Positions 24,504-36,689 of a stretch of DNA of 64,000 nt are shown piece by piece. Position numbers and translations under genes: made by a program. The stretch covers positions 64,001 to 128,000 of the forward strand of contig JALVYU010000031.1 in NCBI GenBank assembly GCA_027022365.1. Reading direction: 5' to 3'. This DNA comes from Desulfurococcales archaeon (GTDB taxonomy: Archaea; Thermoproteota; Thermoprotei_A; Sulfolobales; Desulfurococcaceae). The notes beneath the pieces are model-generated. The model saw only the letters and a list, made by a program, of their open reading frames with translations. It searched no databases and was not told the origin of the DNA. How positions within the stretch are numbered: the first letter of the stretch is position 1; each line of letters begins with the position of its first letter.

Positions 24504-24564
24504 TCTTTTCTCACCATTCCTATTGATTGGATGGGATTAGGTTTAATAGTATGGAACCAAATAC

Positions 24565-24578
24565 TGTGCAATAGCACA
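24565..24578. promoter_or_regulatory. Palindrome TGTGC-AATA-GCACA downstream of a TATA-like box (TTTAATAG, 24542-49); candidate operator
   Basis: Perfect 5-bp inverted repeat near the expected start site of the NifX/DUF134 operon; same motif recurs at 33778 and 33803. Confidence 0.6.
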
Positions 24579-24603
24579 TAAAACAAAGAGAGGTGCATAG
24601 CGC

Positions 24604-25089
24604 ATGGCATGGAACGGTTACAGCCAGCCGAGAGGACAGGGAAGAGGAGGCTACGGCTACGGTAGAGGAGGCATGGGCAGAGGAGCCGGATGGAGAGGCC
24701 AGGGGGGAGGCCCGCCACTGATAAACCTTCCACCCATAAAGCCCCCGGCACCGGGAGCAATAAGGATAGCCGCAATGGTCAATACTCCCCACGGCCTAGA
24801 AGCAACACTAGCACCCCACTATAGGAGAGCACCATATATAGTACTGGTTGACATAGCAGGCGGAAAACCCGTCTGGGTAACCAGTATCCCGAACCCAGCC
24901 GCTACAACGCATGGTGGTGGAGGGATTCTTGCCCAGTGGCTCGCATCCATAGGGGTTAAGTATGTTGTCTCAGGCCATATAGGGCCATCAGCTGCAAGAA
25001 CACTGGTATCGCTAGGAGTGACTATAAGGGTACTACCGCCGGGGACGAGGCTAGTTGACGCACTTAGACAACTAGGATTGCTGGCCTAG
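24604..25089 (+). CDS. NifB/NifX (FeMo-co binding fold) family protein with Gly/Arg-rich N-terminus
   Basis: HYRRAPYIVLVD...NP...GGG...VVSGHIGPSA; N-terminal GRGGYGYGRGGMGRG. Confidence 0.85.
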   Translation: MAWNGYSQPRGQGRGGYGYGRGGMGRGAGWRGQGGGPPLINLPPIKPPAPGAIRIAAMVNTPHGLEATLAPHYRRAPYIVLVDIAGGKPVWVTSIPNPAATTHGGGGILAQWLASIGVKYVVSGHIGPSAARTLVSLGVTIRVLPPGTRLVDALRQLGLLA

Positions 25090-25162
25090 TAGATCATCGG
25101 GTAATAGAATCAATAATTAATCATTGTTTTTCCAAATAATATTCCCTGGAGGTTATATAGAG

Positions 25163-25519
25163 ATGAACATGATGGGTCCTAGGAGATGGAGATGGGGCCG
25201 CCGAGGCCCGGGCAGACCGCCGAAGCCCAGGTGGATATGGGGATTTCCTGGGAGACTGAGCTTCATACCGTTCGATGAGACAGGCCAGCCCATCAATGCA
25301 GAACCAGTTATTCTCAGGCCGGACGAGGTAGAGGCTCTGAGGCTAGTCTACTATGAGGGCCTCAACCAGGAAGAAGCAGCAAAGAAAATGGGTGTCTCGA
25401 GGGGAACCCTCTGGCGTGCACTGGCGAGTGGTAGGAAGAAAGTCGTCCAGGCCCTTATTGAGAGAAGACCCCTGGTTATAGGCTACTGGGGGGACAGAAT
25501 AGAGCAACAGCCCGAATAG
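25163..25519 (+). CDS. DUF134 family HTH protein
   Basis: GRPPKPR...DEVEALRLVYYEGLNQEEAAKKMGVSRGTLWRALASGRKKVVQAL; RBS GGAGG before the ATG at 25163. Confidence 0.9.
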   Translation: MNMMGPRRWRWGRRGPGRPPKPRWIWGFPGRLSFIPFDETGQPINAEPVILRPDEVEALRLVYYEGLNQEEAAKKMGVSRGTLWRALASGRKKVVQALIERRPLVIGYWGDRIEQQPE

Positions 25520-25602
25520 CATTATGAGTAAACACGAGTAATGTATTATTTTGTCAAAAATGAATTTACAGGTTATTTGATGTATAGGAAAACATGATTG
25601 TT

Positions 25603-26889
25603 TTATCGCTTATTTAGACCTACGAGGCTGAGTATTCTCGGCAGTAACAGCCATCCATGCTCTATGATCCCCAGCCTGCCCTTAACGCATTTCTTTTCAA
25701 CAAGCTGATCCACGTCGTCGGGCTCTATCCCTGGGGCATAGACCGCCACCGGCACAGGATCGTCCGTGTGCGCTCCAACGCTCGGCGGTGTGGCATGGTC
25801 TGCCGTTACTAGGATCGCCGTATCGCTGGGCATTCTCTCGAGGAATGGCCGGACGAAATACTCGTCTATCTCCTCTATCCTCTTCTTCTTCAGCTCCATA
25901 TCCTTATCGTGTCCCGGCTCGTCGGGGCCCTTTAGGTGAACGTAGACAATGTTGTATGTTTTTAGGAGCTCGAGTGTTTTCTCAAGCCTTATACTGTAGA
26001 TCTCCTTTGGATCCCCTATTGGTGGTTCGAGGGCGACAGTGTCCGCACCAAAGATCCTTCCTATACCGATCTCCACGGGCATTTCTGCTAAAACGGCGAA
26101 TTTGAGACCGTATTTCTCGGGTAAGGGTGTTGCACGCGGTATTTTTCCGCCAGCGTCCCTGAGAAGTATGGCATTTGCTGGTAGTAGCCCCTTCTTCCTC
26201 CTAGCCTCATTTACCGGATGTTTATCTAGTATCTGGATGGCTTTCTCAGTGAATATGTTTGCTAGCTCAGCAGTTATCCTAGCCTCAATCGTGTCTTCAA
26301 GAGGCTCGATCTTCTTTACGTATGGCTCGAACTCCTTTACTGCTACACTGAGAAGACCTTTACGGGTGTACGCCGGATCACTATTGCCTACATATGGGCT
26401 GAGCCTATGTGTCCTACTACCTATTATGACTACCGCACGATGCCCAACAGTAGCCTTCACTCTTGCGTAGCCATCATATTTTCCGAGCTCCATACCGTCC
26501 AGCGCTTTTGCAAGTTCTCGGGCTTCCTCCGTCTCAAGGTTTCTGCCTACACGCCTATCAATCAACTTCTTGGTACTCGGATCTATTGTCGCGAAATTAG
26601 CTCTGAAAGCTATCTCGTAGCCCTCCTTAATGGTCATTCCCGCACCAACAGCCTCGATCGGCCCTCTCCCGGTATAGACTTCATGAGGATTATATCCTAT
26701 TATCGATATAACCGCCTCATCGCTCTCCGGCGCGATCCCTTTCTCAACAGTATACATGGCTCCACAAACACCGTCCCTAGCGATCCTGTCAAGACCCGGT
26801 TTATAGGCCTTCTCAAGAGTCGTCACAGGATCAGATAATCTATCAGCCATGCCGTCCAGAACTAGGTACAGAAGCCTCTTAACAACCAT
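25603..26889 (-). CDS. apgM: 2,3-bisphosphoglycerate-independent phosphoglycerate mutase family (paralog 1)
   Basis: LDGMAD, PESD, GRGPIEA, DRR, KGPDEPGHD, TADHATP, H..DPVP. Confidence 0.85.
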   Translation of the reverse strand: MVVKRLLYLVLDGMADRLSDPVTTLEKAYKPGLDRIARDGVCGAMYTVEKGIAPESDEAVISIIGYNPHEVYTGRGPIEAVGAGMTIKEGYEIAFRANFATIDPSTKKLIDRRVGRNLETEEARELAKALDGMELGKYDGYARVKATVGHRAVVIIGSRTHRLSPYVGNSDPAYTRKGLLSVAVKEFEPYVKKIEPLEDTIEARITAELANIFTEKAIQILDKHPVNEARRKKGLLPANAILLRDAGGKIPRATPLPEKYGLKFAVLAEMPVEIGIGRIFGADTVALEPPIGDPKEIYSIRLEKTLELLKTYNIVYVHLKGPDEPGHDKDMELKKKRIEEIDEYFVRPFLERMPSDTAILVTADHATPPSVGAHTDDPVPVAVYAPGIEPDDVDQLVEKKCVKGRLGIIEHGWLLLPRILSLVGLNKR

Positions 26890-26989
26890 AGCCGCAACAC
26901 CACATGATCATGTTTCTGGTCAAAGCTATATAGAATGGTGCTAATAACATTAATTCCTGTTTCCTAAAGAAAATATTGTAAGTAGTAAG

Positions 26990-27673
26990 CTAATCTAGAC
27001 ATCTCTGCATAATTTCGTGGAGAGGTCTAGACTGAGACACTATCATGTAATCATATCTTTTCTCGCCCGCAACCTCATAAATTATTGTTATCTCATCACA
27101 CGAGATCAGGATAGATGGTGTATCTATTATTTTCAAAGTCTTGATATGATCTTTGTAAAGGTCGAGGAAATCCCTTATTTCTGGATAATCTACGGCTTTT
27201 CTTGTATAATATATTGTGAAGTTATCTCTACCGGTCAAGAACCTCTTAAGATAGTTTAGAATGACGTGTCTTCCCCGTAGACAAATTGTTTTTTCACGGG
27301 GTACGAATCCCTTCTTATATTTCGATAATAGGTCCCGGATTCTCGCTATGTTTTCCTCTAGTTCTCTGAGTTTTGAGACAAGTTCTTCTCTTAGTTTGGC
27401 TATATAGTTTGAGAGCGCTATTCCTGGATCTAGGGCCTCGAATTTTAGGGGTCGACCCGGTATACTGGCTACGAAGCCCTTTTCCTCAAGCTGGTTCAGT
27501 ACATCGTATACCCTGGTATAAGGTATGCCGCTGAGATCGCTTATCTCGCTGGCCGTTGCGGTTCCTCTTATGAGTAATGTAAAGTATACTTTTGCCTCGT
27601 AGAGGGATAACCCTATTCTCTGTAATTCTTCTATAATAGTCTTTTCAGTACTCTTGACCAATCTCCGTGGCAC
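26990..27673 (-). CDS. TrmB family transcriptional regulator
   Basis: GLSLYEAKVYFTLL...TASEISDLSGIPYTRVYDVLNQLEEKG...GRP; short C-terminal domain. Confidence 0.92.
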   Translation of the reverse strand: MPRRLVKSTEKTIIEELQRIGLSLYEAKVYFTLLIRGTATASEISDLSGIPYTRVYDVLNQLEEKGFVASIPGRPLKFEALDPGIALSNYIAKLREELVSKLRELEENIARIRDLLSKYKKGFVPREKTICLRGRHVILNYLKRFLTGRDNFTIYYTRKAVDYPEIRDFLDLYKDHIKTLKIIDTPSILISCDEITIIYEVAGEKRYDYMIVSQSRPLHEIMQRCLD

Positions 27674-27685
27674 CCCCCTGCGTGT

Positions 27686-28429
27686 CTAGTATACGAGCTT
27701 CTCTGGCTTCTCGACGACGATACCGTTTCTTGTTAAGTGGTATTTGAACGGGTTCCTTGGATACCTTGTCTTGATACACCTTGTGATCTCGAAGTACCTA
27801 ATCGTCTGATCCAGATCTGATATCCTGTGGAGGGTGATGACCACGTCGGGCAACTGCTTCATAAAAGTCTCCGTATACTTGTCTTTGACTCCTTCTGTAT
27901 AGACCAGCATGTATATTCCATTGTATTTCCGGGCCTCAGCATGTAATCTCTCTATGAAGTATGGTATTTTCTCCTTCGGCGCCGTGAAGAATATAGTTGA
28001 AACATGGCTGAATACGAGCCGTGCTTTCTCTGCGTCCTCGAATACTTCTCTTTCCGCCATCACTATTGTCCTGATCACTTCGTCTAGGTCGAAGGGGTTT
28101 TCGAGAAGGTACTGGGCGCTGCTCTCAACACCCACTCTTGGAGAGAACCCATCTATAAATACTAGTTTATCCTCGTAGAAGAACTTCCGGGCATCCCATC
28201 CATACTTAGCCATGTTATCTAATAGGTCGTCGGGGAAAGCATCAACTGTAATGTATATTGCTTTCTCCCCGTGTTTTAGACCGTGATACATTATCTGTTG
28301 TGCGAACGTATTCTTATTAGTGCCTATGTCGCCTGTGATGAGCACAGAGGACGGTCTTGGGAACCCGCCTTCGAGGATCTCGTCTAGGGCGGGGATCCCT
28401 GTAGATGCACGATCTATGGTTTTGGCCAT
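27686..28429 (-). CDS. KaiC/RAD55-like ATPase with degenerate catalytic motifs
   Basis: STGIPALDEILEGGFP...; Walker A reads GDIGTNKNT; ITVDA where EE is usual; RLVFSH where Walker B is usual. Confidence 0.85.
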   Translation of the reverse strand: MAKTIDRASTGIPALDEILEGGFPRPSSVLITGDIGTNKNTFAQQIMYHGLKHGEKAIYITVDAFPDDLLDNMAKYGWDARKFFYEDKLVFIDGFSPRVGVESSAQYLLENPFDLDEVIRTIVMAEREVFEDAEKARLVFSHVSTIFFTAPKEKIPYFIERLHAEARKYNGIYMLVYTEGVKDKYTETFMKQLPDVVITLHRISDLDQTIRYFEITRCIKTRYPRNPFKYHLTRNGIVVEKPEKLVY

Positions 28430-28500
28430 GACCTACTACCATACCTTATATTTTAAATAATATTTTAAATATCCCTGTATTAATGCTGTGCTGTTTTTGT

Positions 28501-28520
28501 TTTTCACTCAATAGTGAAAA
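28501..28520. promoter_or_regulatory. Palindrome TTTTCACT-CAAT-AGTGAAAA, candidate TrmB operator 1
   Basis: Perfect 8-bp inverted repeat immediately upstream of TATA-like TTATATAT (28523-30). Confidence 0.7.
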
Positions 28521-28563
28521 TCTTATATATTGAAGGAATACAGATCATAATATAATAGAGCTA

Positions 28564-28583
28564 TTTTCACTACAGGGTGAAAA
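28564..28583. promoter_or_regulatory. Palindrome TTTTCAC-TACAGG-GTGAAAA, candidate TrmB operator 2
   Basis: Second copy of TTTTCAC-N6-GTGAAAA, overlapping the RBS/start region of the DASS gene. Confidence 0.7.
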
Positions 28584-30067
28584 GTGTCTTGTCGATAGCC
28601 AAGGACAAGCCTAAGAGCGAGAAAATCCTAAACATGATCGGGTTCCCGATAGCACTAATAGTGTTCGTCGCCATTCTTCTCATGCCAACGCCTGCAGGCC
28701 TCACGGCCCAGGGTCAACGAGCACTGGCGGTGTTCTGGCTGGCCTTCGTCCTATGGCTGACAACACCCATACCAGTCTGGCTTACATCGATGTTAGCAAT
28801 AGTTCTTCTAGCACTGACTGGTGGATGGGACTACAAGCAAGCATTCTACCAGTTCGGACAAGAAGTCATATGGCTAATGGTCGCCGCATTCATAATCGCG
28901 AGTGCTCTCGAGAGGAGCGGTATTGGTAAAAGAATCGCTTATAGCATGGCATTATGGTTCGGTCGTTCAGCAAAAATGACTCTATTGGGCTTCATAATAC
29001 TAAACATAGTCCTAGCATTCGTTGTCCCAAGCACTACAGCACGTGCAGCCATAGTTTTACCAATAGCTCTTCTCATGGCTCAGGCGTATGGCGCCAAGCC
29101 CGGTGAGAGCAAGTTCGGCAAACTCCTCATGCTACAGCAGCCGATAGCGAACAACCTAGCCACGGCGATGATATTAACAGCTACAGCTCCACAGATAATT
29201 GCATGGGGCTTCATATCGACTCTGGCCGGCGTAGAGGTCCCATGGATCACATGGCTCATTGCTCAGGCACCAATAGTATTGATAACATTATTCCTGATGT
29301 GGCTCGTCGGCCTCAAACTATGGAAGCCTGAGGTCGATAAGCCTCTAGGGGGAATCGATAAGATAAGGGAGGAGCTAAGAAAGCTTGGGCCTATGACCAG
29401 AGAAGAGAAGACAGCGCTAGCGATATTCGCCCTAGTAGTATTCCTATGGGCTACCGACAAGATACAGCCACTCATGTTCTGCGGCCTCAAGATACCTTAT
29501 AGCGTGGCAGCAGTGATAGGTGCGATACTATTGTTCATGCCGAAAATAGGGCCTCTCAAGAGTTGGAAAGACGCCAAGATACCGTGGGACCTAATGGTGT
29601 TCAGTGCCGGAGCATATGCTGTAGGCATGGCGTTAGAGGATACTGGCGCGGCCAAGTGGATGGCCACCGCTCTGATCAACGCCACAGGGCTCTCACAGGG
29701 CGTACACCCGTATGTCGCGTACGTTATCCTAGTAGGCATAATGATGTACAGCCACATAATATTCAGTAGCAAGACGGTTAGAACGGTAATATTTATACCG
29801 TTGTACATCATACTTGCCGAGAGCCTCGGCATACCTCCAGTAATGATAGCGCTGCCTGCTGCATTCACTATTGCCTGGACCATAAGCCTGCCGTTCAACT
29901 GTAAGCCTAACCTAATATACTATGGTACCGGATACTTCAATGTCACAGACGAGTTCCTATACGGTATCATAACGTGTACGATCGGCTATATACTGTACCT
30001 GACGATTGGCTGGGCATGGTTCAACTTCCTAGGAGGAATAGGAATGATACCTGGCTGGACAGGGTGA
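28577..30067 (+). CDS. DASS/SLC13 family sodium-coupled anion symporter
   Basis: Many TM helices; VPSTTARAAI, LTATAPQ, IPWDL, KPN.IYYGTGY; true start may be TTG at 28589. Confidence 0.9.
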   Translation: MKSVLSIAKDKPKSEKILNMIGFPIALIVFVAILLMPTPAGLTAQGQRALAVFWLAFVLWLTTPIPVWLTSMLAIVLLALTGGWDYKQAFYQFGQEVIWLMVAAFIIASALERSGIGKRIAYSMALWFGRSAKMTLLGFIILNIVLAFVVPSTTARAAIVLPIALLMAQAYGAKPGESKFGKLLMLQQPIANNLATAMILTATAPQIIAWGFISTLAGVEVPWITWLIAQAPIVLITLFLMWLVGLKLWKPEVDKPLGGIDKIREELRKLGPMTREEKTALAIFALVVFLWATDKIQPLMFCGLKIPYSVAAVIGAILLFMPKIGPLKSWKDAKIPWDLMVFSAGAYAVGMALEDTGAAKWMATALINATGLSQGVHPYVAYVILVGIMMYSHIIFSSKTVRTVIFIPLYIILAESLGIPPVMIALPAAFTIAWTISLPFNCKPNLIYYGTGYFNVTDEFLYGIITCTIGYILYLTIGWAWFNFLGGIGMIPGWTG

Positions 30068-30073
30068 TAAGCC

Positions 30074-30997
30074 ATGAGGAACCTGATAATAGCCTACATA
30101 CTCCTCGTCGCAGTAATATTCTCGATGATATTGCCCCTGGCATCATCGGGAACAGTGATAAGAGGAGTACTGTATAGGTTCGACGTACAAAAGATCGTTA
30201 AACTAACGCATAGTGGAAAGAGCTATGGAGGAATAGTCTTCTACCTCACCGTAACCTTCAGGATAGCGAACTATACTGATACAAACCTAGTAGTACCGCT
30301 AGGAATACCGTTCGTGACATCCTCCAAGTACAAAGGAGCAGTTGATCCGAAACTCGTGTCATACCAGGTGATCTATGAGGGCAAGAACATAGCGGAGTCA
30401 GCAACATTCATCTACAAACCACTCTCAAGAGTTGAGATTAAGCTATCCAAGCCTATAACAGGGCAGGACTACGCTATTGTAAACATAACAGTACTAGGAA
30501 CAGTAAAGTCGACCTCTAAGCTATATGTGACAAAGGATTATAAGTATTATAAAGACTACAAGCCAGCCTCCAACAAGATCATGGCCCTGGACATCATTAA
30601 CTTCTGGTACAGCACAACATGGTGCACAGACACGATCAATGGAGAGAAGGTCCCCGGTATAAGAGTAGTAGTTCTAGCACCCAAGGGTTGGCAGATACTC
30701 TACGCAAGAACATCATTATCTTCCAAGCTAAGATACATGGACATACACAAGATATATGAGAAGGACGATAGACAAGTAGTAGAGCTATGGTATCTCAGCT
30801 CAAAAACGATCAAGCCTACTAGCTTCAAGCCAGGTTCAGTATTCACTATCGAGATAGGCTTCACACCATTCTCAGACTACCGCAGCCCCGTAACACTAGC
30901 AGTATCAATAATCCTACTGATCCTAGCCGGGTTCTTCGCATGGTACTATAGAGACATATGGAAATACACGACACGCAAGACTAGTCTACAAAAATAA
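30074..30997 (+). CDS. Hypothetical secreted protein with C-terminal membrane anchor
   Basis: Signal peptide, beta-rich ectodomain, C-terminal TM helix with basic tail; 6 nt after the DASS gene. Confidence 0.8.
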   Translation: MRNLIIAYILLVAVIFSMILPLASSGTVIRGVLYRFDVQKIVKLTHSGKSYGGIVFYLTVTFRIANYTDTNLVVPLGIPFVTSSKYKGAVDPKLVSYQVIYEGKNIAESATFIYKPLSRVEIKLSKPITGQDYAIVNITVLGTVKSTSKLYVTKDYKYYKDYKPASNKIMALDIINFWYSTTWCTDTINGEKVPGIRVVVLAPKGWQILYARTSLSSKLRYMDIHKIYEKDDRQVVELWYLSSKTIKPTSFKPGSVFTIEIGFTPFSDYRSPVTLAVSIILLILAGFFAWYYRDIWKYTTRKTSLQK

Positions 30998-31046
30998 TTT
31001 TTTCCTTCATAGAGCACTTTATCACCGCGATGGAGGTGCCTGAGGC

Positions 31047-32348
31047 ACGGAGCTCACATTTCTCGGAGGATACCGTGAACAGGGGCGCTCCTCTCTCCTA
31101 ATATCTACCAGGAGGACAAACGTTCTCTTAGATGCTGGTATTAAGAAGGAGTATAGCGGTAATTACTACGGCGTCCCCCCGTACCTGGACATGGTTGATC
31201 CCGAGAATCTCGACGCGGTATTTGTGTCGCATCTACATGAAGACCATATGGCTATGATCCCCTACCTGGTTAGGAGAGGATATAGTGAACCAATATACAT
31301 GACAAGGCCAACCCGAGAACTAGGCGTCAAACAATGGGTTAAATGGGCAAGGATACTCGAGGAGGATGGACGCAGTCTATACAGCGTAACCGACGCCGTT
31401 AATGCTGAGAGGCTGATCAGGGAGGTAAGGTATGGCGATGTAATAGAAATAGGGGATCTAAGGATCACTATAGGCCTCGCAGGACATGCTCTAGGTTCAG
31501 CCCACTTCCTGGTAGAGGAAAAGAAGGGAAAGAAACTCCTATACCTCGCAGATGTGAATAAGGGATCCCATGTTCTCCGAGACTTTGAAGAACCCAAGAC
31601 CAGACCTGACGCAATGATCATTAATGCTTCTTATGGAGACAATATCATAGACATGGAGGCGACTAAGAGGAAGCTCGCCGAGATACTGGGTCATACTCTC
31701 CTTGAGGGCTCTGTCCTGTTCCCGGTAACTCCGACTGGTAGGGCCCAGGAAACACTTATGATCCTATATAGTATCAGAGATAAGATCAAGGACACAACGA
31801 TAATAGCTACAGAAAAGATCAGGAAAGCCACCGAAACCCTTAACAAATACCAGGGCGAGCTGAAGGAGACATATATGGAACAAATAAGAGAGGTTCTTGA
31901 AGACATTGTCTTTGCTAAGGAGGAGGAAATACTCGAAGCCGCTGGAAAGCCTGGCTACATTATCTTGGCGGAAGACCTCATGATGATGGGGTTCTCCCGC
32001 CGTATATTCATGGAGATAAAGGATGACCCGAGATCAGCGGTCATACACACTGGCTACAAGGCCCCGGGCACGTTCGCAAGACAACTAGTAATGGCTAGGA
32101 ATACAATGTGCTTCACATGGAATAGTGAACCACTAGTCTTTAGAACAAGGGTTTACGACATACCGATCAAGATGCACTTCGATCTGCATGACAACATATC
32201 CCTGGTTGAAAGTATGGGTAGGCCTCTCCTAATCCTCCATCACGGTGAAGAGCCACGTAGCCTGAGATTGGCCCTAGCCCTCTCAAACTATGTGGAACCC
32301 AAGCGTATCCTGCTTCCAAGTACCCCCTCAAAAACATTCTTGGGGTGA
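31047..32348 (+). CDS. MBL-fold beta-CASP family metallo-hydrolase
   Basis: HLHEDH, AGHALGS, GRAQE, TGY.APGT, HHGE. The frame is open upstream of the track's Met (31191) back to ACG at 31047, giving [M]ELTFLGGYREQGRSSLLI...VLLDAG (MBL motif 1). Confidence 0.85.
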   Translation, partial: TELTFLGGYREQGRSSLLISTRRTNVLLDAGIKKEYSGNYYGVPPYLDMVDPENLDAVFVSHLHEDHMAMIPYLVRRGYSEPIYMTRPTRELGVKQWVKWARILEEDGRSLYSVTDAVNAERLIREVRYGDVIEIGDLRITIGLAGHALGSAHFLVEEKKGKKLLYLADVNKGSHVLRDFEEPKTRPDAMIINASYGDNIIDMEATKRKLAEILGHTLLEGSVLFPVTPTGRAQETLMILYSIRDKIKDTTIIATEKIRKATETLNKYQGELKETYMEQIREVLEDIVFAKEEEILEAAGKPGYIILAEDLMMMGFSRRIFMEIKDDPRSAVIHTGYKAPGTFARQLVMARNTMCFTWNSEPLVFRTRVYDIPIKMHFDLHDNISLVESMGRPLLILHHGEEPRSLRLALALSNYVEPKRILLPSTPSKTFLG

Positions 32349-32354
32349 CCTGCT

Positions 32355-33647
32355 TTGCCCAAGCCCAAATGGGAGGCCAAGAAAACATATAGAGCCATAA
32401 TCCTCATCCAGGACGGAGTAGGAGATAGACCTGTCCCAGAGCTAGGCGGCCGCACGCCCCTCGAGGTCGCCCGGAAACCACACATGGACACAATAGCATT
32501 GCTCGGAGCAACCGGCCTCATGGACTTGATTGAACCCGGTGTACGGCCCGGCACCGATACCGGACACCTAGCTTTGTTCGGCTACGACCCATACAAGTAC
32601 TATCCGGGAAGAGGACCGCTCGAGGCCGCTGGTATAGGTGTACCCCTTAGGCCCGGCGATGTCGCGCTGAGATGCAATATAGCAACAGTAGAGGAGAGGA
32701 ATGGAGAACTAATAGTAATTGATAGACGTGCGGGCAGGATCAGGGGCGATCATGTCAAAATACTTGTCGAGGCACTAAACAAGGCGATAAAAGAAGTAGA
32801 TGGTGTGAAGATAGAGTTCTACCCCGCCACCGAACACCGCGTAGTAATGGTTCTCCGCGGAGAAGGCCTTTCACCCAAGATATCTGACAGCGACCCTGGC
32901 ACGGCTATGGAGGGACACCCGATAAGAAAGGTCGTACCCCTCGACGACACCGAGGAGGCCAGGAGAACCGCAGAGATAGTCAATAAGGTGGTAAGACTGG
33001 CACATCAGGTACTCAGAAACCATCCGCTCAACAAGGAGCGCGTTGAGAAGGGCTTGCTCCCCGGCAACGCCATAATAACTCGTGGAGCTGGAATGATTCC
33101 GAGAGACCTGAAGCCATACCACGAGGTATTCAAGACTAAAGCCTATGTCGTTGCCGAGGAGGCAACCATAGTTGGGATCGCGAGGATCCTCGGCATGGAT
33201 GCAGAGATACCGCCCGGCGCCACAGCGACTCTAGATACGGATCTAGACTCAATACTGGAGTCAGCTCTCAAAGCATGGAAGCAGGGCTACGAGATAGTAT
33301 ACATACATGTAAAAGGCCCAGACATAGCCGGGCATGATGCAGACCCTCACGGCAAGATAAAGATAATCGAGAGGACAGACCAGATGCTGGGAAAACTAAT
33401 GAAGCAGATAGACTTGAGAAACACCGTGATAGCCCTAGCAGCAGACCACTCGACACCATGTACAGTGAGAGACCACAGTGGGGATCCAGTTCCAGTAGCA
33501 ATATATGCGCCAACAATACGCAGAGACCACACAAGAAAATACGACGAATACACATGTAGCCAGGGAATGCTGGGAAGAATAAGGGGAACGGATCTCTTAA
33601 AGATAATACTAGACCAGATGAACAAACCCCTAAAATGGGGTGCGTAA
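32355..33647 (+). CDS. apgM: Phosphoglycerate mutase (ApgM) family, paralog 2
   Basis: QDGVGDRP, TPLE, PGTDTGHLALFGY, GRGPLEA, DRRAGRI, KGPDIAGHD, ADHSTP, HSGDPVP. Confidence 0.85.
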   Translation: MPKPKWEAKKTYRAIILIQDGVGDRPVPELGGRTPLEVARKPHMDTIALLGATGLMDLIEPGVRPGTDTGHLALFGYDPYKYYPGRGPLEAAGIGVPLRPGDVALRCNIATVEERNGELIVIDRRAGRIRGDHVKILVEALNKAIKEVDGVKIEFYPATEHRVVMVLRGEGLSPKISDSDPGTAMEGHPIRKVVPLDDTEEARRTAEIVNKVVRLAHQVLRNHPLNKERVEKGLLPGNAIITRGAGMIPRDLKPYHEVFKTKAYVVAEEATIVGIARILGMDAEIPPGATATLDTDLDSILESALKAWKQGYEIVYIHVKGPDIAGHDADPHGKIKIIERTDQMLGKLMKQIDLRNTVIALAADHSTPCTVRDHSGDPVPVAIYAPTIRRDHTRKYDEYTCSQGMLGRIRGTDLLKIILDQMNKPLKWGA

Positions 33648-33777
33648 ATACCATGATTTTTTAACATTTCCAGCCAGATAGTTCGATTCTGCGTGACATT
33701 CTATTTATGTTATATAAAGAACTGGATGTGAGATCAGGCGGGTTCTTTGTCCTATTAGTGTGTTTCTGTGATAATTT

Positions 33778-33816
33778 TGTGCGTTTGCGCAAAATTTAAT
33801 AGTGTGCTATAGCTCA
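33778..33816. promoter_or_regulatory. Two TGTGC-N4-GCNCA palindromes flanking a TTTAATAG TATA-like box
   Basis: TGTGC-GTTT-GCGCA (33778-91, extended by AATTT/AAATT flanks) and TGTGC-TATA-GCTCA (33803-16); TATA-like box at 33795-33802. Confidence 0.65.
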
Positions 33817-33837: not shown

Positions 33838-34092
33838 ATGGCCTGGTTCCCTGGTTATGGTTGGAGAGGAGGCTGGGGCTGGAGAAGAGGCTGGAGAGGC
33901 CCATGGCCTGGTAATGGGCCATTCAGCTATCTACCGCCATGGCAGAGACCTGGATGGCTATTTGGAAGAGGATCGTGCTGGTGGCTATTCGGCGGCCCAT
34001 GGGGATACTGGGCTAGGACTTGGTACCCCTACCCAGTACCCTATCCGTATGTCCCTCCAGCATACTACCCGTACTATCCATGGGGATGGTGA
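33838..34092 (+). CDS. Small Trp/Gly/Arg/Pro/Tyr-rich low-complexity protein
   Basis: RBS GGGTGA; MAWFPGYGWRGGWGWRRGWRGPWPGNGPFSYLPPWQRPGW... Confidence 0.75.
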   Translation: MAWFPGYGWRGGWGWRRGWRGPWPGNGPFSYLPPWQRPGWLFGRGSCWWLFGGPWGYWARTWYPYPVPYPYVPPAYYPYYPWGW

Positions 34093-34100
34093 TAGGTACA

Positions 34101-34301
34101 ATGTACTGGTGGTATTACCCACCAGTATACACACCGTACTACATGTATGATCCCATGGCCATGATGGCATACATGATGCAGTGGATGACTATACCATATT
34201 ATTATGCACTATACATGGAGATGTTTAGGGCAACTCTAGATGCATGGAGGAAAGCCATAGAGGCAATATCAGCTAGTATATCGCAGAAAGCAAAACAGTA
34301 A
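34101..34301 (+). CDS. Small Tyr/Met-rich protein
   Basis: RBS GGTGA; MYWWYYPPVYTPYYMYDPMAMMAYMMQWM...; followed by an amphipathic helix. Confidence 0.65.
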   Translation: MYWWYYPPVYTPYYMYDPMAMMAYMMQWMTIPYYYALYMEMFRATLDAWRKAIEAISASISQKAKQ

Positions 34302-34451
34302 TGCTCCGCCAAAAACAACTCATTGCGTAGGCCTCAGACGAAAAGATCTTGTCGTTAAATCATTTTTTATCAAGTAAACATAATGTAATACATGTGTATA
34401 TCAATAAGGACCTATATGATCGGAGATCAAAAACAAGGAGGGAGACCGGCT

Positions 34452-34775: not shown

Positions 34776-34882
34776 TGCAATCATAGATACTACTTTATAT
34801 TCATCAATCTTTTTTAATTGAATAAATGAGAAGAACATAATTTTCTCAAACTATTTCTTTTATGCATTGGTGCGAATAGGAA

Positions 34883-36130
34883 ATGGATAATATTTATGAA
34901 AAACTATACAAGTATGTTGAACCCTTTGAAGCTGTATCGACATTAATAGAAGGGTTTAAAAGGAAGACAATAAGGTTAAGGCCGGAGAAAAGCATAGGTT
35001 ATATTCTCGCGGAGCCTGTTTATGCAGAGATAGATAGGCCTTATGCTAATCTATCTCATGTTGACGGATGGGCTGTTAGATCAATAGATACATTGAGTGC
35101 TTCTTCAGAGAGCCCTGTCAAGCTTAGAGTAAGAGATAATGTGGATTCCCGGAGAGCAGATCAGGTTGAGCTTCGGCCCGGTGAAACTGTTTTAGTAGAG
35201 ACAGGGTTTCCTATACCCGTTAACGCGGATGCAGTCATACCGGTAGAGTCAGCCCGTAAAATCGGAAACAATGTCTACATCTACGCACCGGTAGCCCGAG
35301 GATACAACGTCTTCCCTAGATCCAGTGATTTCAGGAAAGGAGAAAAACTACTAGATAGAGGCACGAGGATCACTTATTATGCCGTGAAATTATTAATGGA
35401 TGCCGGTGTTTGGAGGATAAAGGTCTATGATAAACCTAAAATAGCAGTTTATAGCACGGGCGTCGAGCTCAAAGAAGAACCAGCAATGTCTGGGCAATCC
35501 TACATACCTGACTCATCCAGGCTATTCATAAACCATGTGATCGAAGAACTCGGAGGAAAAATAATCGACACAGCCAATATACCCGATTCTCACGAATCAA
35601 TAGCCGAAGTGGTAGAGGGGATCATGGATGATGCCGACCTCGTGGTAACGATAGGAGGTGTATCCATGGGCCCACGTGATATGACGTGGACAGGGATAAA
35701 GAAAAGGATAAGGTACAGCAGGGTCTTTAGAGGAGTAAAAATGCATCCAGGAAGGTCAACAAGCGGTTTCAAGACAAACACGGCATCTATACTCAATCTT
35801 CCAGGACTACCGCAGTCAACCATAGCCGCGACGATACTAGTACTAGCTCCAGTCATAAGATACATGTCCGGAGCCGAGCCAATAATTGATAAGCCGAAAC
35901 TGTACGCTAAGCTTGCCGAGGACTACCGGAGCGATAAATATCTAGGTTTCTACAGGATGAGATATGTTGAGATCATTAATGGAGAAGCAGTCATATGGGA
36001 AGATAATCCTTCCTATAACGTCTTCACACCACTGAAAAGCAGTGGCATAACAATAATACCCCCAGGTAAAAAACCATTAAAAGGCGAATCGATACCGATC
36101 TATAGACCCAGCTCTATCTATCCCGAGTAA
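34883..36130 (+). CDS. moeA: Molybdopterin molybdotransferase
   Basis: SHVDGWAVRS, TGFPIP.NADAVIPVE, STGVEL, GGVSMGPRD, HPGR, LPGLP. Confidence 0.88.
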   Translation: MDNIYEKLYKYVEPFEAVSTLIEGFKRKTIRLRPEKSIGYILAEPVYAEIDRPYANLSHVDGWAVRSIDTLSASSESPVKLRVRDNVDSRRADQVELRPGETVLVETGFPIPVNADAVIPVESARKIGNNVYIYAPVARGYNVFPRSSDFRKGEKLLDRGTRITYYAVKLLMDAGVWRIKVYDKPKIAVYSTGVELKEEPAMSGQSYIPDSSRLFINHVIEELGGKIIDTANIPDSHESIAEVVEGIMDDADLVVTIGGVSMGPRDMTWTGIKKRIRYSRVFRGVKMHPGRSTSGFKTNTASILNLPGLPQSTIAATILVLAPVIRYMSGAEPIIDKPKLYAKLAEDYRSDKYLGFYRMRYVEIINGEAVIWEDNPSYNVFTPLKSSGITIIPPGKKPLKGESIPIYRPSSIYPE

Positions 36131-36200
36131 ACCTAGACCTCAAAATTAATTAAGTCCCTAAGCACAAGTGTATATCAAAGTAAATTATCCTTGATAGATT

Positions 36201-36689
36201 ATGGAGGAGAACACTTTGAAACTCGGGTTTTTCACAGAACGGCAGATAAAGATCCTATATCTCCGGAATAAAGGACTCTTACTAAGAGATGTTGCGGAGA
36301 TCATGAAGACGAGCTACCAAAACATATCATTGATCGAGAAACGTGTCTACAGGAACGTTAAATTAGCCAAAGACACGATCCTCATATACAAGATCATAAC
36401 ATCGCCTGTAAAGATATTGCTTCCGGTAGGCTCACATCTGGCAGAGATCCCAAGAAAGGTTATACTAGAGTGCGATAAGAAAGGAGTGAAGCTCAAAGCG
36501 GACTTCACGCTCATCTACAAGCTCATAAGGTTTAGGACATCCGAGAACATAAGGGGACAATACATAATCAAGCCCATACTCCTTTTAGTCGATCTCCAGG
36601 GACAACCATACGTCTATGACTACGAGAGTGTAGAACCCTACATTAGGGAGATAGAGAGGATCATAGGAGAAAAGATAATAGAGCAGTAA
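36201..36689 (+). CDS. Tfx family DNA-binding protein
   Basis: FTERQIKILYLRNKG...VAEIMKTSYQNISLIEKR...IPRKVILECDKKGVKL. Confidence 0.85.
   Translation: MEENTLKLGFFTERQIKILYLRNKGLLLRDVAEIMKTSYQNISLIEKRVYRNVKLAKDTILIYKIITSPVKILLPVGSHLAEIPRKVILECDKKGVKLKADFTLIYKLIRFRTSENIRGQYIIKPILLLVDLQGQPYVYDYESVEPYIREIERIIGEKIIEQ

Follow-up and report, generated by a model that had tools for sequence, protein, structure and literature searches.

Autoregulated dimeric helix-turn-helix (HTH) repressors that bind a promoter palindrome are a familiar kind of regulator. In archaea, MDR1, Phr, TrmB and LrpA are repressors that act on the TATA box and the TFB-recognition element (BRE) or on the transcription start, where a palindrome-bound dimer blocks TFB/TBP or RNA polymerase and often controls its own gene. 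Here, we analyzed a window of 64,000 nucleotides from an archaeon labelled Desulfurococcales (the window is the whole stretch under analysis, C31:64001-128000 of a 1.74-Mb assembly in 44 contigs), in which three palindromes lie on two promoters. One promoter precedes the genes of a NifX-like protein and a DUF134 (UPF0251) protein, and the other precedes three low-complexity genes, lc1, lc2 and lc3. From the sequences compared below, we consider it likely that the three palindromes are the operators of DUF134, which would be a local, self-regulating repressor of the NifX-like gene and of a split DUF5320 gene. What is new about such a repressor is that the regulator is DUF134, for which a literature search over titles and abstract starts returned no published functional study. 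The families of MDR1, Phr, TrmB and LrpA (DtxR, winged helix, TrmB and Lrp) differ from DUF134, whose HTH is of the sigma-70-region-4 type.

The closest solved relative of the DUF134 HTH is that of Bacillus subtilis DeoR (SorC family; PDB 7bhy and 8r7y), which matches DUF134 positions 55-93 at E 5.5e-5, and NCBIfam also gave a weak DeoR match. The DeoR report describes two DeoR domains bound to a 15-bp palindrome, TTGAACAAAATTCAA, with 5-nt arms (PMC11229326). This operator is of the same size class as TGTGC-N4-GCACA, the palindrome considered here, whereas the half-site sequences differ. Moreover, DeoR is tetrameric and carries a large effector domain for sugar phosphates, whereas DUF134 has no effector domain and thus does not fall among the SorC/DeoR regulators; features of DUF134 that set it apart from DeoR are a conserved Arg/Pro-rich arm and a beta-strand used for dimerization in our model. 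DeoR is also bacterial and works at sigma-A promoters, whereas the DUF134 protein studied here is archaeal.

Palindromic sites on two core promoters

The sites and the genes that follow them are listed by position in the window.

24542..24550, + strand: TATA-like box TTTAATAGT of the nifX-like/DUF134 promoter, from the sequence; kept in the congeners G001, G004 and G005
24565..24578, unstranded: putative operator O(nifX), perfect palindrome TGTGCAATAGCACA, from the sequence and the pattern count
24604..25089, + strand: NifX-like protein (PF02579, IPR003731; Pfam 49.8 bits against 26.3, residues 66-156)
25163..25519, + strand: DUF134 (UPF0251) HTH protein, proposed dimeric repressor (PF02001)
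33778..33791, unstranded: putative operator O1, TGTGCGTTTGCGCA, directly upstream of the TATA-like box, its A-rich flank overlapping the BRE position
33795..33803, + strand: TATA-like box TTTAATAGT of the lc1-lc2-lc3 promoter, from the sequence; the G001 version is TTTATAGT
33803..33816, unstranded: putative operator O2, TGTGCTATAGCTCA, directly downstream of the TATA-like box and before the expected transcription start
33838..34092, + strand: lc1, W/G/R/P/Y-rich, 84 residues, from homologues and alignment to single-chain DUF5320 proteins
34101..34301, + strand: lc2, Y/M/W-rich, 66 residues, with a C-terminal helix-like segment, from a hidden Markov model (HMM) and homologues in loci L014 and L020
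34416..34775, + strand: lc3, Pro/Tyr-rich with a C-terminal coiled coil; its open reading frame (ORF) opens at 34392, and the start at 34416 is taken from the onset of homology

The original prediction, made from the sequence alone, had placed the motif TGTGC-N4-GCNCA at 24565-78, 33778-91 and 33803-16 with the box TTTAATAGT in both promoters, and all of these were found at those positions. Three sites (four strand matches) of the pattern TGTGCNNNNGCNCA occur in the window, where 0.27 would be expected, and none of 100 shuffles reached four; the 9-mer TTTAATAGT had three matches against 0.65 expected, a number reached by one shuffle in 100. The pattern searched in the window, TGTGC-N4-GCNCA, was chosen after the fact. 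In the intergenic stretch 24504-24603, the TATA-like box is followed by O(nifX), a GAGGTG ribosome-binding site and the ATG at 24604. The center of O(nifX) lies about 26 nt downstream of the center of the TATA-like box, a distance at which archaeal transcription is expected to begin. At the other promoter, the trio O1-TATA-O2 stands upstream of the lc1 ATG at 33838.

Two further features of the nifX promoter were observed. A second inverted repeat, AGTAT-N8-ATACT, lies at 24550-24567 between the TATA-like box and O(nifX), and its counterpart in G001, AGTGTGGAAC, resembles a TGTGC half-site. On the opposite strand, the TATA-like box at 24542-24550 might be used by the divergently oriented dcd gene as well.

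Within the genus, the nifX palindrome and its TATA box are unchanged in 4/4 genomes, including G001 despite its diverged flanks. At the lc promoter, a core of about 65 nt with O1, TATA and O2 is kept in 5/5 genus genomes, while the DNA further upstream is unrelated; in G001, O2 has become a perfect palindrome, TGTGCTATAGCACA, shifted towards symmetry.

Outside the genus, DUF134 is present in 29 of 41 related genomes. Eight of 25 non-genus relatives' DUF134 loci have a TATA-abutting TGTG[C/T/A]-N4-GCACA site (at most two mismatches) before DUF134, NifX-like or lc genes, and two of them (L014 and L020) share the site-TATA-site layout of the window. A wider set was obtained by scanning one genome per species with a DUF134 alignment, which gave 80 loci labelled Thermoproteota, Bathyarchaeia, Hadarchaeota, Nitrososphaerota, Methanomassiliicoccales and others; L105, a locus with the module, carries the label of a cultivable relative, Ignisphaera aggregans. 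Three of the 80 belong to the genus of the window, and the remaining 77 comprise 344,866 nt. Perfect TGTGC-N4-GCACA palindromes numbered 33, in 31 of the 77 loci, whereas five controls of matching shape gave 0, 0, 1, 0 and 0. Allowing up to one mismatch brought the count to 73 sites in 58 loci, against 4, 3, 9, 3 and 13 for the controls.

The lc and NifX-like genes in these loci were found with HMMs built from the window and its relatives. lc1 occurred in 51/77 loci, lc3 in 46/77, lc2 in 28/77 and a NifX-like gene in 27/77, with at least one of them in 61/77. The sites keep close to these genes: 63 of the 73 fall in the zone from -60 to +200 nt relative to where a module gene (DUF134, NifX-like or lc) starts, which takes up 16.5% of the 77-locus sequence (binomial P 5e-39), and two of the ten sites outside it in fact precede lc1 genes whose ORF start had been set too early. 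By target, the site-gene pairs were 48 for lc1, 13 for DUF134, 13 for lc3 and 4 for NifX-like genes. The form TGTGC-N4-GCNCA is present as originally described, but the fuller consensus, after symmetrization, is the 20-bp (A/T)TT-TGTGC-WWWW-GCACA-AA(A/T). Its spacer is 84% A/T, compared with 53% in the loci overall, and a variant with a CATATG core, TGTGCATATGCACA, occurs in relatives.

A TATA-like hexamer lies at most 16 nt from the site in 63 of 79 site-gene pairs, and two layouts recur. In 31/79 pairs, the TATA box is followed by the operator, a GGTGA-type ribosome-binding site and, about 16-22 nt on, the ATG, so that the operator covers the expected start site. In 27/79 pairs, the operator is directly followed by AAATTTATA and covers the BRE; in another 5/79, TATA boxes lie on both sides. 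The lc promoter of the window combines both layouts around one TATA box.

Some sites in relatives lie far from DUF134. Among the matches listed, all five perfect palindromes of this kind are intergenic. Two are in G008, one before lc1 and a DUF5320 gene and the other before a NifX-like gene with a Gly/Arg tail, after which comes the gene of a MinD-type ATPase with ferredoxin motifs; one precedes lc1 in G007; one in G013 precedes a metallo-beta-lactamase gene of the type that follows DUF134 in locus L015; and the site in G023 is triple and lies between two transporter genes. In the latter region (L051, G023:C1:115500-118500, approximately 1440-1560), three TGTGCATATG-type sites, one of them perfect, stand between a gene of the bile-acid/sodium symporter family and a Na+/H+ exchanger gene, far from the DUF134 gene of G023, and may extend the regulon to transporters. 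Of five one-mismatch sites examined among the matches listed, four were inside genes and one preceded feoA-feoA-feoB. The latter (L054, G008:C1:1481600-1484600, positions 1526-1539) is the operator-like sequence TGTGCAATAACACA beside a TATA-like box, 64 nt upstream of this ferrous iron transport operon, and hints at a link to iron.

Palindromes near gene starts might also be hairpins of RNA or DNA, for example terminators or structured leaders. As RNA, the nifX site and O1 do fold, at -6 and -10 kcal/mol (z -2.6 and -2.9). O2, in contrast, reaches -1.3 kcal/mol, and 142 of 200 shuffles fold as well, a result on which we rejected the RNA hairpin. In addition, O1 and the operator-then-TATA sites lie upstream of TATA and would be left out of the transcript, natural variants alter the half-site on one side and so disrupt the pairing, and the stem is only 5 bp in an organism labelled Desulfurococcales, archaea that grow at high temperature. 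We regard hairpins as a very improbable explanation.

DUF134 and its link to the site

The gene identities in the original prediction held up, with PF02579 at 49.8 bits for the NifX-like protein, PF02001 at 77.9 bits for DUF134 and a weak DUF5320 match at 21.6 bits. DUF134 matches its Pfam family over residues 17-106, well above the cut-off of 27, and stays below the cut-off of the NCBIfam equivalog PRK04217 (94.5 bits against 115). Its HTH scores above the cut-offs of both Sigma70_r4_2 (33.3 bits) and Sigma70_r4 (31.4 bits). The protein has 118 residues, with a conserved Arg/Pro-rich N-terminal arm, GRPPKPR, and its first 30 residues are Trp/Arg/Gly-rich with an isoelectric point (pI) of 12.

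A palindromic site calls for a dimer. The predicted DUF134 homodimer scored 0.83 against 0.00 for the best control, three runs shared at least 69% of contacts, and the partner confidence (pLDDT) was at least 71. In the calibration of the predictor, the mark was reached by 20/30 proteins solved as one-chain pairs and by 1/23 solved as single chains, counts that are only a rough calibration here, where our own alignment was used. In the model, the interface consists of the conserved strand 30-41 and of helices 56-64 and 91-104.

The half-site covaries with the recognition helix of DUF134. Loci with the helix SRGT[LV]WR have a TGTGC-type site in 62/90 cases, whereas loci with SK[AT]T[FT]WR have one in 0/6 and carry TGAAA-N4-TTTCA in 6/6, located after the TATA box and before the start of lc1. 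A single SRGTFWR locus carries TGAGACATATCTCA. The original prediction had named DUF134 as the regulator, and the occurrence of the palindrome beside DUF134 in many genera together with this covariation supports the assignment, DNA binding being predicted from sequence comparison. In the SK-type loci L030-L036, a second palindrome resembling TGAAAC..GTTTCA was observed in the last codons of DUF134, which encode K-L-V-S, some 63 nt ahead of the operator in the intergenic region; this could be a coding coincidence or a second site.

A regulator whose gene lies elsewhere, perhaps a global one for iron or sulfur, might bind the sites instead, with DUF134 as just one of its targets. The case for binding by DUF134 comes from sequence and model, and the motif also stands before genes that are not adjacent to DUF134, namely lc1, NifX-like and feoAAB (one mismatch) in G008 and the transporters in G023. 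Against this stands the covariation, which ties the half-site to the helix of this very protein. As for the gene content of the loci, no DNA-binding gene except DUF134 accompanies the site: Tfx and TrmB-like, which are the window's remaining regulators, occurred in 0/77 DUF134 loci. lc1 is also rarely found without DUF134: 18 of 20 lc1-positive relatives have it (Fisher P 0.015, the relatives not being independent); of the other two, one is a genome 69% complete, its contig breaking off at the locus, and one is a weak match at E 4e-4. Finally, the palindrome lies at DUF134's own promoter, overlapping core elements and conserved across relatives, and the 13 site-gene pairs at its own gene or operon fit autoregulation. 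A different regulator is improbable on these grounds.

With DUF134 as the regulator, we infer the following mechanism. A DUF134 homodimer would set its two sigma-70-region-4-type HTH units on the TGTGC and GCACA half-sites, whose centers are 9 bp apart, and the arm GRPPKPR may touch the A/T-rich spacer or flanks. Because every site lies on a core promoter, the bound dimer should exclude TFB/TBP or RNA polymerase. DUF134 would thereby repress its own nifX-DUF134 operon and the split-DUF5320 operon until a signal releases it.

The direction of control is less certain than the assignment of the sites to DUF134. DUF134 might act as an activator or a dual regulator, for instance by recruiting TFB/TBP from upstream of TATA. 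Some archaeal activators use a site just upstream of TATA, and the operator is so placed in 27/79 pairs and at O1. However, the 31/79 pairs with the operator between TATA and the Shine-Dalgarno sequence or start codon have it covering the start site, the upstream-type site abuts TATA so tightly that its A-rich flank fills the BRE, and the lc promoter of the window has sites on both sides of TATA. Sites over the start or the BRE are hard to square with activation, and repression is therefore more likely; activation is an alternative that we consider unlikely, if less so than a different regulator.

A number of observations weigh against DUF134 as the local repressor. In the genome, TGTGC-N4-GCNCA has eight distinct sites in 1,742,253 bases, approximately what composition predicts; the stricter TGTGCWWWWGCACA with at most one mismatch has five, against three for its backwards control, and the ratios are similar across 40 relatives. 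In 17 of the 25 DUF134 loci of relatives, no TGTGC-type site is present at up to two mismatches. Seven of the 17 carry a TGAAA- or TGAGA-type site in its place, and approximately ten have no recognizable site, some of them with the SRGTLWR helix (L012, L018, L023 and L024). The 77 loci were picked through a recognition-helix peptide pattern and come from related lineages, with some genomes in both locus sets; as kin, pattern-selected and partly overlapping with the relatives' loci, they give counts that overstate independence. The lc HMMs rest on a small number of low-complexity sequences. In front of nifX, 15 nt separate the operator from the TATA box, which it does not abut, so that the true start site matters. 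The dimer is predicted, by a model score and no measurement, and the DUF134 proteins of the clade have no conserved cysteine or histidine, which bears on how sensing would work.

The original prediction had taken occurrence at background frequency as grounds for refutation. Taken literally, this is what the genome-wide count gives, but two or three sites are enough for a local regulon, so the count does not refute the proposal; with a count near background, the signal resides in placement and conservation, which still support it. The same count, together with a pattern chosen post hoc, would favor a chance similarity of two A/T-rich promoters. We give this explanation hardly any credence, as the sites are conserved while their flanks diverge, and as the 77 loci hold 33 perfect sites against 0-1 for controls, with the placement P value given above.

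The other sites of the genome are of a different character. Of the five exact sites outside the window, one lies over a coding-sequence start on a 1.3-kb bacterial-looking contig, two are inside long ORFs, and two have G/C-rich spacers. A symmetrized matrix from 14 sites, scanned over the 1.74 Mb, ranked O(nifX) first, O2 second and O1 eighth; this ranking is partly circular because three of the 14 sites are from the window. The scan found no further intergenic site of comparable score. The only other high-scoring match flagged intergenic, C9:193 (score 17.5), is over the start of a signal-peptide gene, and two weak intergenic matches scored 12.4 and 12.2. Contig C9 (1303 bases) has a bacterial look, with a GGAGG ribosome-binding site and the signal-peptide gene, and the many 1-2.5-kb contigs of the assembly may hold sequence of other organisms.

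The genome has one DUF134 gene and four NifX-domain genes. Sites had been expected before other NifX-like genes, an expectation that failed: the three others of this genome have neither a cationic tail nor a site. With a single DUF134 gene and three NifX-domain genes lacking the site, the candidate regulon in this genome comes down to two promoters.

Proposed target genes and their resemblance to iron-sulfur proteins

The second promoter had been described as preceding aromatic-rich small proteins. These are present, but they are better read as a split DUF5320 protein. lc1 (G 16, R+K 7, P 16, aromatic 30; pI 9.9) contains a single conserved cysteine, and its core, WPGxGPFSYLPPWQRPGWxFGRGSCWW, is conserved as well. 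Homologues at E <=1e-3 number 189; many of these carry PF17253, and two are called DUF5320 by their source. In five single-chain DUF5320 proteins, the lc1 core (WPGRGPFSYLPPWQRPGWLFGRGACWW) is joined through a linker to a coiled-coil tail, and lc1 aligns to residues ~2-63 of these proteins at E 1e-27 to 1e-34. lc3 matches Pfam DUF5320 (PF17253) at E 5e-4 and 21.6 bits, below the cut-off of 27, and its residues 70-116 align to approximately 55-95 of the single-chain proteins (E 1e-8 to 1e-12, best two). With lc1 as the N-terminal and lc3 as the C-terminal part, the genes would form a split, divergent DUF5320 with an extra lc2 between them.

Neither lc1 nor lc2 has a Pfam match. lc2 was also without a match in NCBIfam scans, and an Atlas search returned a cluster of archaeal hypothetical proteins only (score 0.91). 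lc2 was not found between lc1 and lc3 in the congeners G004 and G005 (L046 and L047), in which the two genes are 12-18 nt apart; it would thus be dispensable or recently gained.

The NifX-like protein bears an N-terminal cationic tail of 62 residues (G 17, R+K 7, P 9, aromatic 5; pI 11.7) and has no cysteine. Its best PDB match is MTH1175 (1eo1, E 1.3e-8), and the orange protein (2wfb) matches at E 1.2e-5. The former leads to IssA of Pyrococcus furiosus, which its report describes as an IPR003731 domain with a 70-residue C-terminal tail, Pro-rich and then cationic, aromatic and Gly-rich, with a pI of 10.7; the tail is proposed there to wrap anionic thioferrate, and MTH1175 is placed in the IssA clade and used as a structural model (PMC5524996). 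The NifX-like protein shares the globular domain family of IssA. A similar tail composition is found in the NifX-like tail, in lc1 and at the N-terminus of DUF134, a resemblance of composition and not a shown homology. There are differences as well. The IssA tail is C-terminal and holds the single cysteine of the protein, whereas the NifX-like tail here is N-terminal and lacks cysteine, so that the cysteine expected of an IssA counterpart is absent from it. IssA is also one protein, whereas here lc1 is a separate gene with one conserved cysteine. As a direct link to the IssA tail, we searched for lc1-NifX fusions among longer proteins; none was found, the one match being a 156-residue protein with no Pfam domain, which is weak evidence.

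The orange protein (ORP) set of Desulfovibrio vulgaris offers a second comparison. According to its report, a NifX-family protein, Orp8, clusters in anaerobes with small metal-binding partners, and the orp operons are under the control of sigma-54, OrpR and integration host factor (PMC6345978). The likeness lies in the match of 2wfb to the NifX-like domain and in G008, where the MinD-type ATPase with ferredoxin motifs encoded after the tailed NifX-like gene resembles Orp3/Orp4. The control differs, being by sigma-54 and OrpR and not by DUF134, and no ORP cluster appears in the window: none of the 15 scanned window proteins is of the MinD/ferredoxin or Mrp/NBP35 type. Sigma-54 control is not known to apply to archaea.

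Since the targets share the chemistry of the thioferrate-binding tail of IssA, the signal that releases DUF134 is, by this analogy, most likely iron-sulfur or metal-sulfide status. A bolder version of the analogy, which we put forward tentatively and consider rather unlikely as a whole, is that DUF134, the lc1/lc2/lc3 proteins and the tailed NifX-like protein form an IssA-like store of iron-sulfur or metal-sulfide, in which the tail has turned into free-standing proteins. The DUF134 arm would then sense the polyanion by competition with DNA, and the promoter would open as the iron-sulfide polymer accumulates.

A probable single system in two loci and its meaning

The original prediction had held the two loci to be halves of one system, and the comparison with congeners agrees. 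In G002, G004 and G005, the order is dcd, nifX-like, DUF134, apgM1, lc1, (lc2), lc3, moeA and tfx, with apgM1 alone between DUF134 and the low-complexity genes, and lc1 or lc3 lies within 2.5 kb of DUF134 in 58/77 loci of other genera. The neighbors in the window are as follows.

25603-26889, - strand: apgM, between DUF134 and the variable block
26957..33746, no single strand: variable 6.8-kb block with TrmB-like, KaiC-like, DASS transporter, 307-residue, beta-CASP and apgM2 genes, from congener comparison and Pfam
27686-28429: KaiC-like gene inside the variable block, 2.2 kb from DUF134
34883-36689: MoeA (molybdopterin molybdenumtransferase) and Tfx-family regulator, after lc3

The trmB-to-apgM2 block is absent from the same three congeners, whose homology to the window ends at approximately 26936-26956 and restarts at approximately 33747-33771, just before O1, with 140-300 nt of unrelated sequence in its place. 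G001 also has a block there, in which the DASS, 307-residue and beta-CASP genes were not found. Absent from three congeners and partly different in G001, the block is thus a variable region of insertion or deletion between otherwise adjoining parts. On this gene order, it lies between the two loci without belonging to the DUF134 system. The synteny expected in related genomes was accordingly found, with the loci next to each other in three congeners and the block variable. The two apgM paralogues that flank the block are only ~39% identical, and its 307-residue protein has no Pfam match.

The remaining neighbors do not follow DUF134 beyond the genus. MoeA and Tfx come after lc3 in 5/5 genus genomes and in 0/77 DUF134 loci of other genera, and an oligo-T run at 34808-34814 between lc3 and moeA makes co-transcription doubtful; Tfx reportedly regulates a molybdenum enzyme operon in a methanogen. 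Tfx, MoeA, TrmB-like, KaiC-like, apgM, DASS, dcd and beta-CASP were each found in 0/77 loci (tblastn, E 1e-5) and were rejected as conserved partners. KaiC/RecA-type ATPase genes were observed next to DUF134 in the relatives' loci L017, L019, L022 and L025, which represent several other genera, and Pfam places KaiC-like genes beside DUF134 in 3/25 relatives' loci.

What this analysis adds to the familiar type of repressor is the crenarchaeal TGTGC form of the site, its two placements around an archaeal TATA box, the way the half-site covaries with the helix, a DUF5320 split over separate genes and, among NifX-like genes, a site confined to those with a tail. DUF134/UPF0251, an old and widespread family, now has a testable candidate DNA site, (A/T)TT-TGTGC-WWWW-GCACA-AA(A/T), and a putative rule by which SRGTLWR goes with TGTGC and SK[AT]TFWR with TGAAA. 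Its regulon would be compact, with the very highly conserved DUF5320 core as the main target. DUF5320 and the tailed NifX-like protein are tied, by analogy, to the chemistry of IssA, the only protein known to store iron-sulfur, and this suggests assays for them. If the proposal is true, a sigma-70-region-4-type repressor that works on either side of the TATA box would be added to archaeal transcription.

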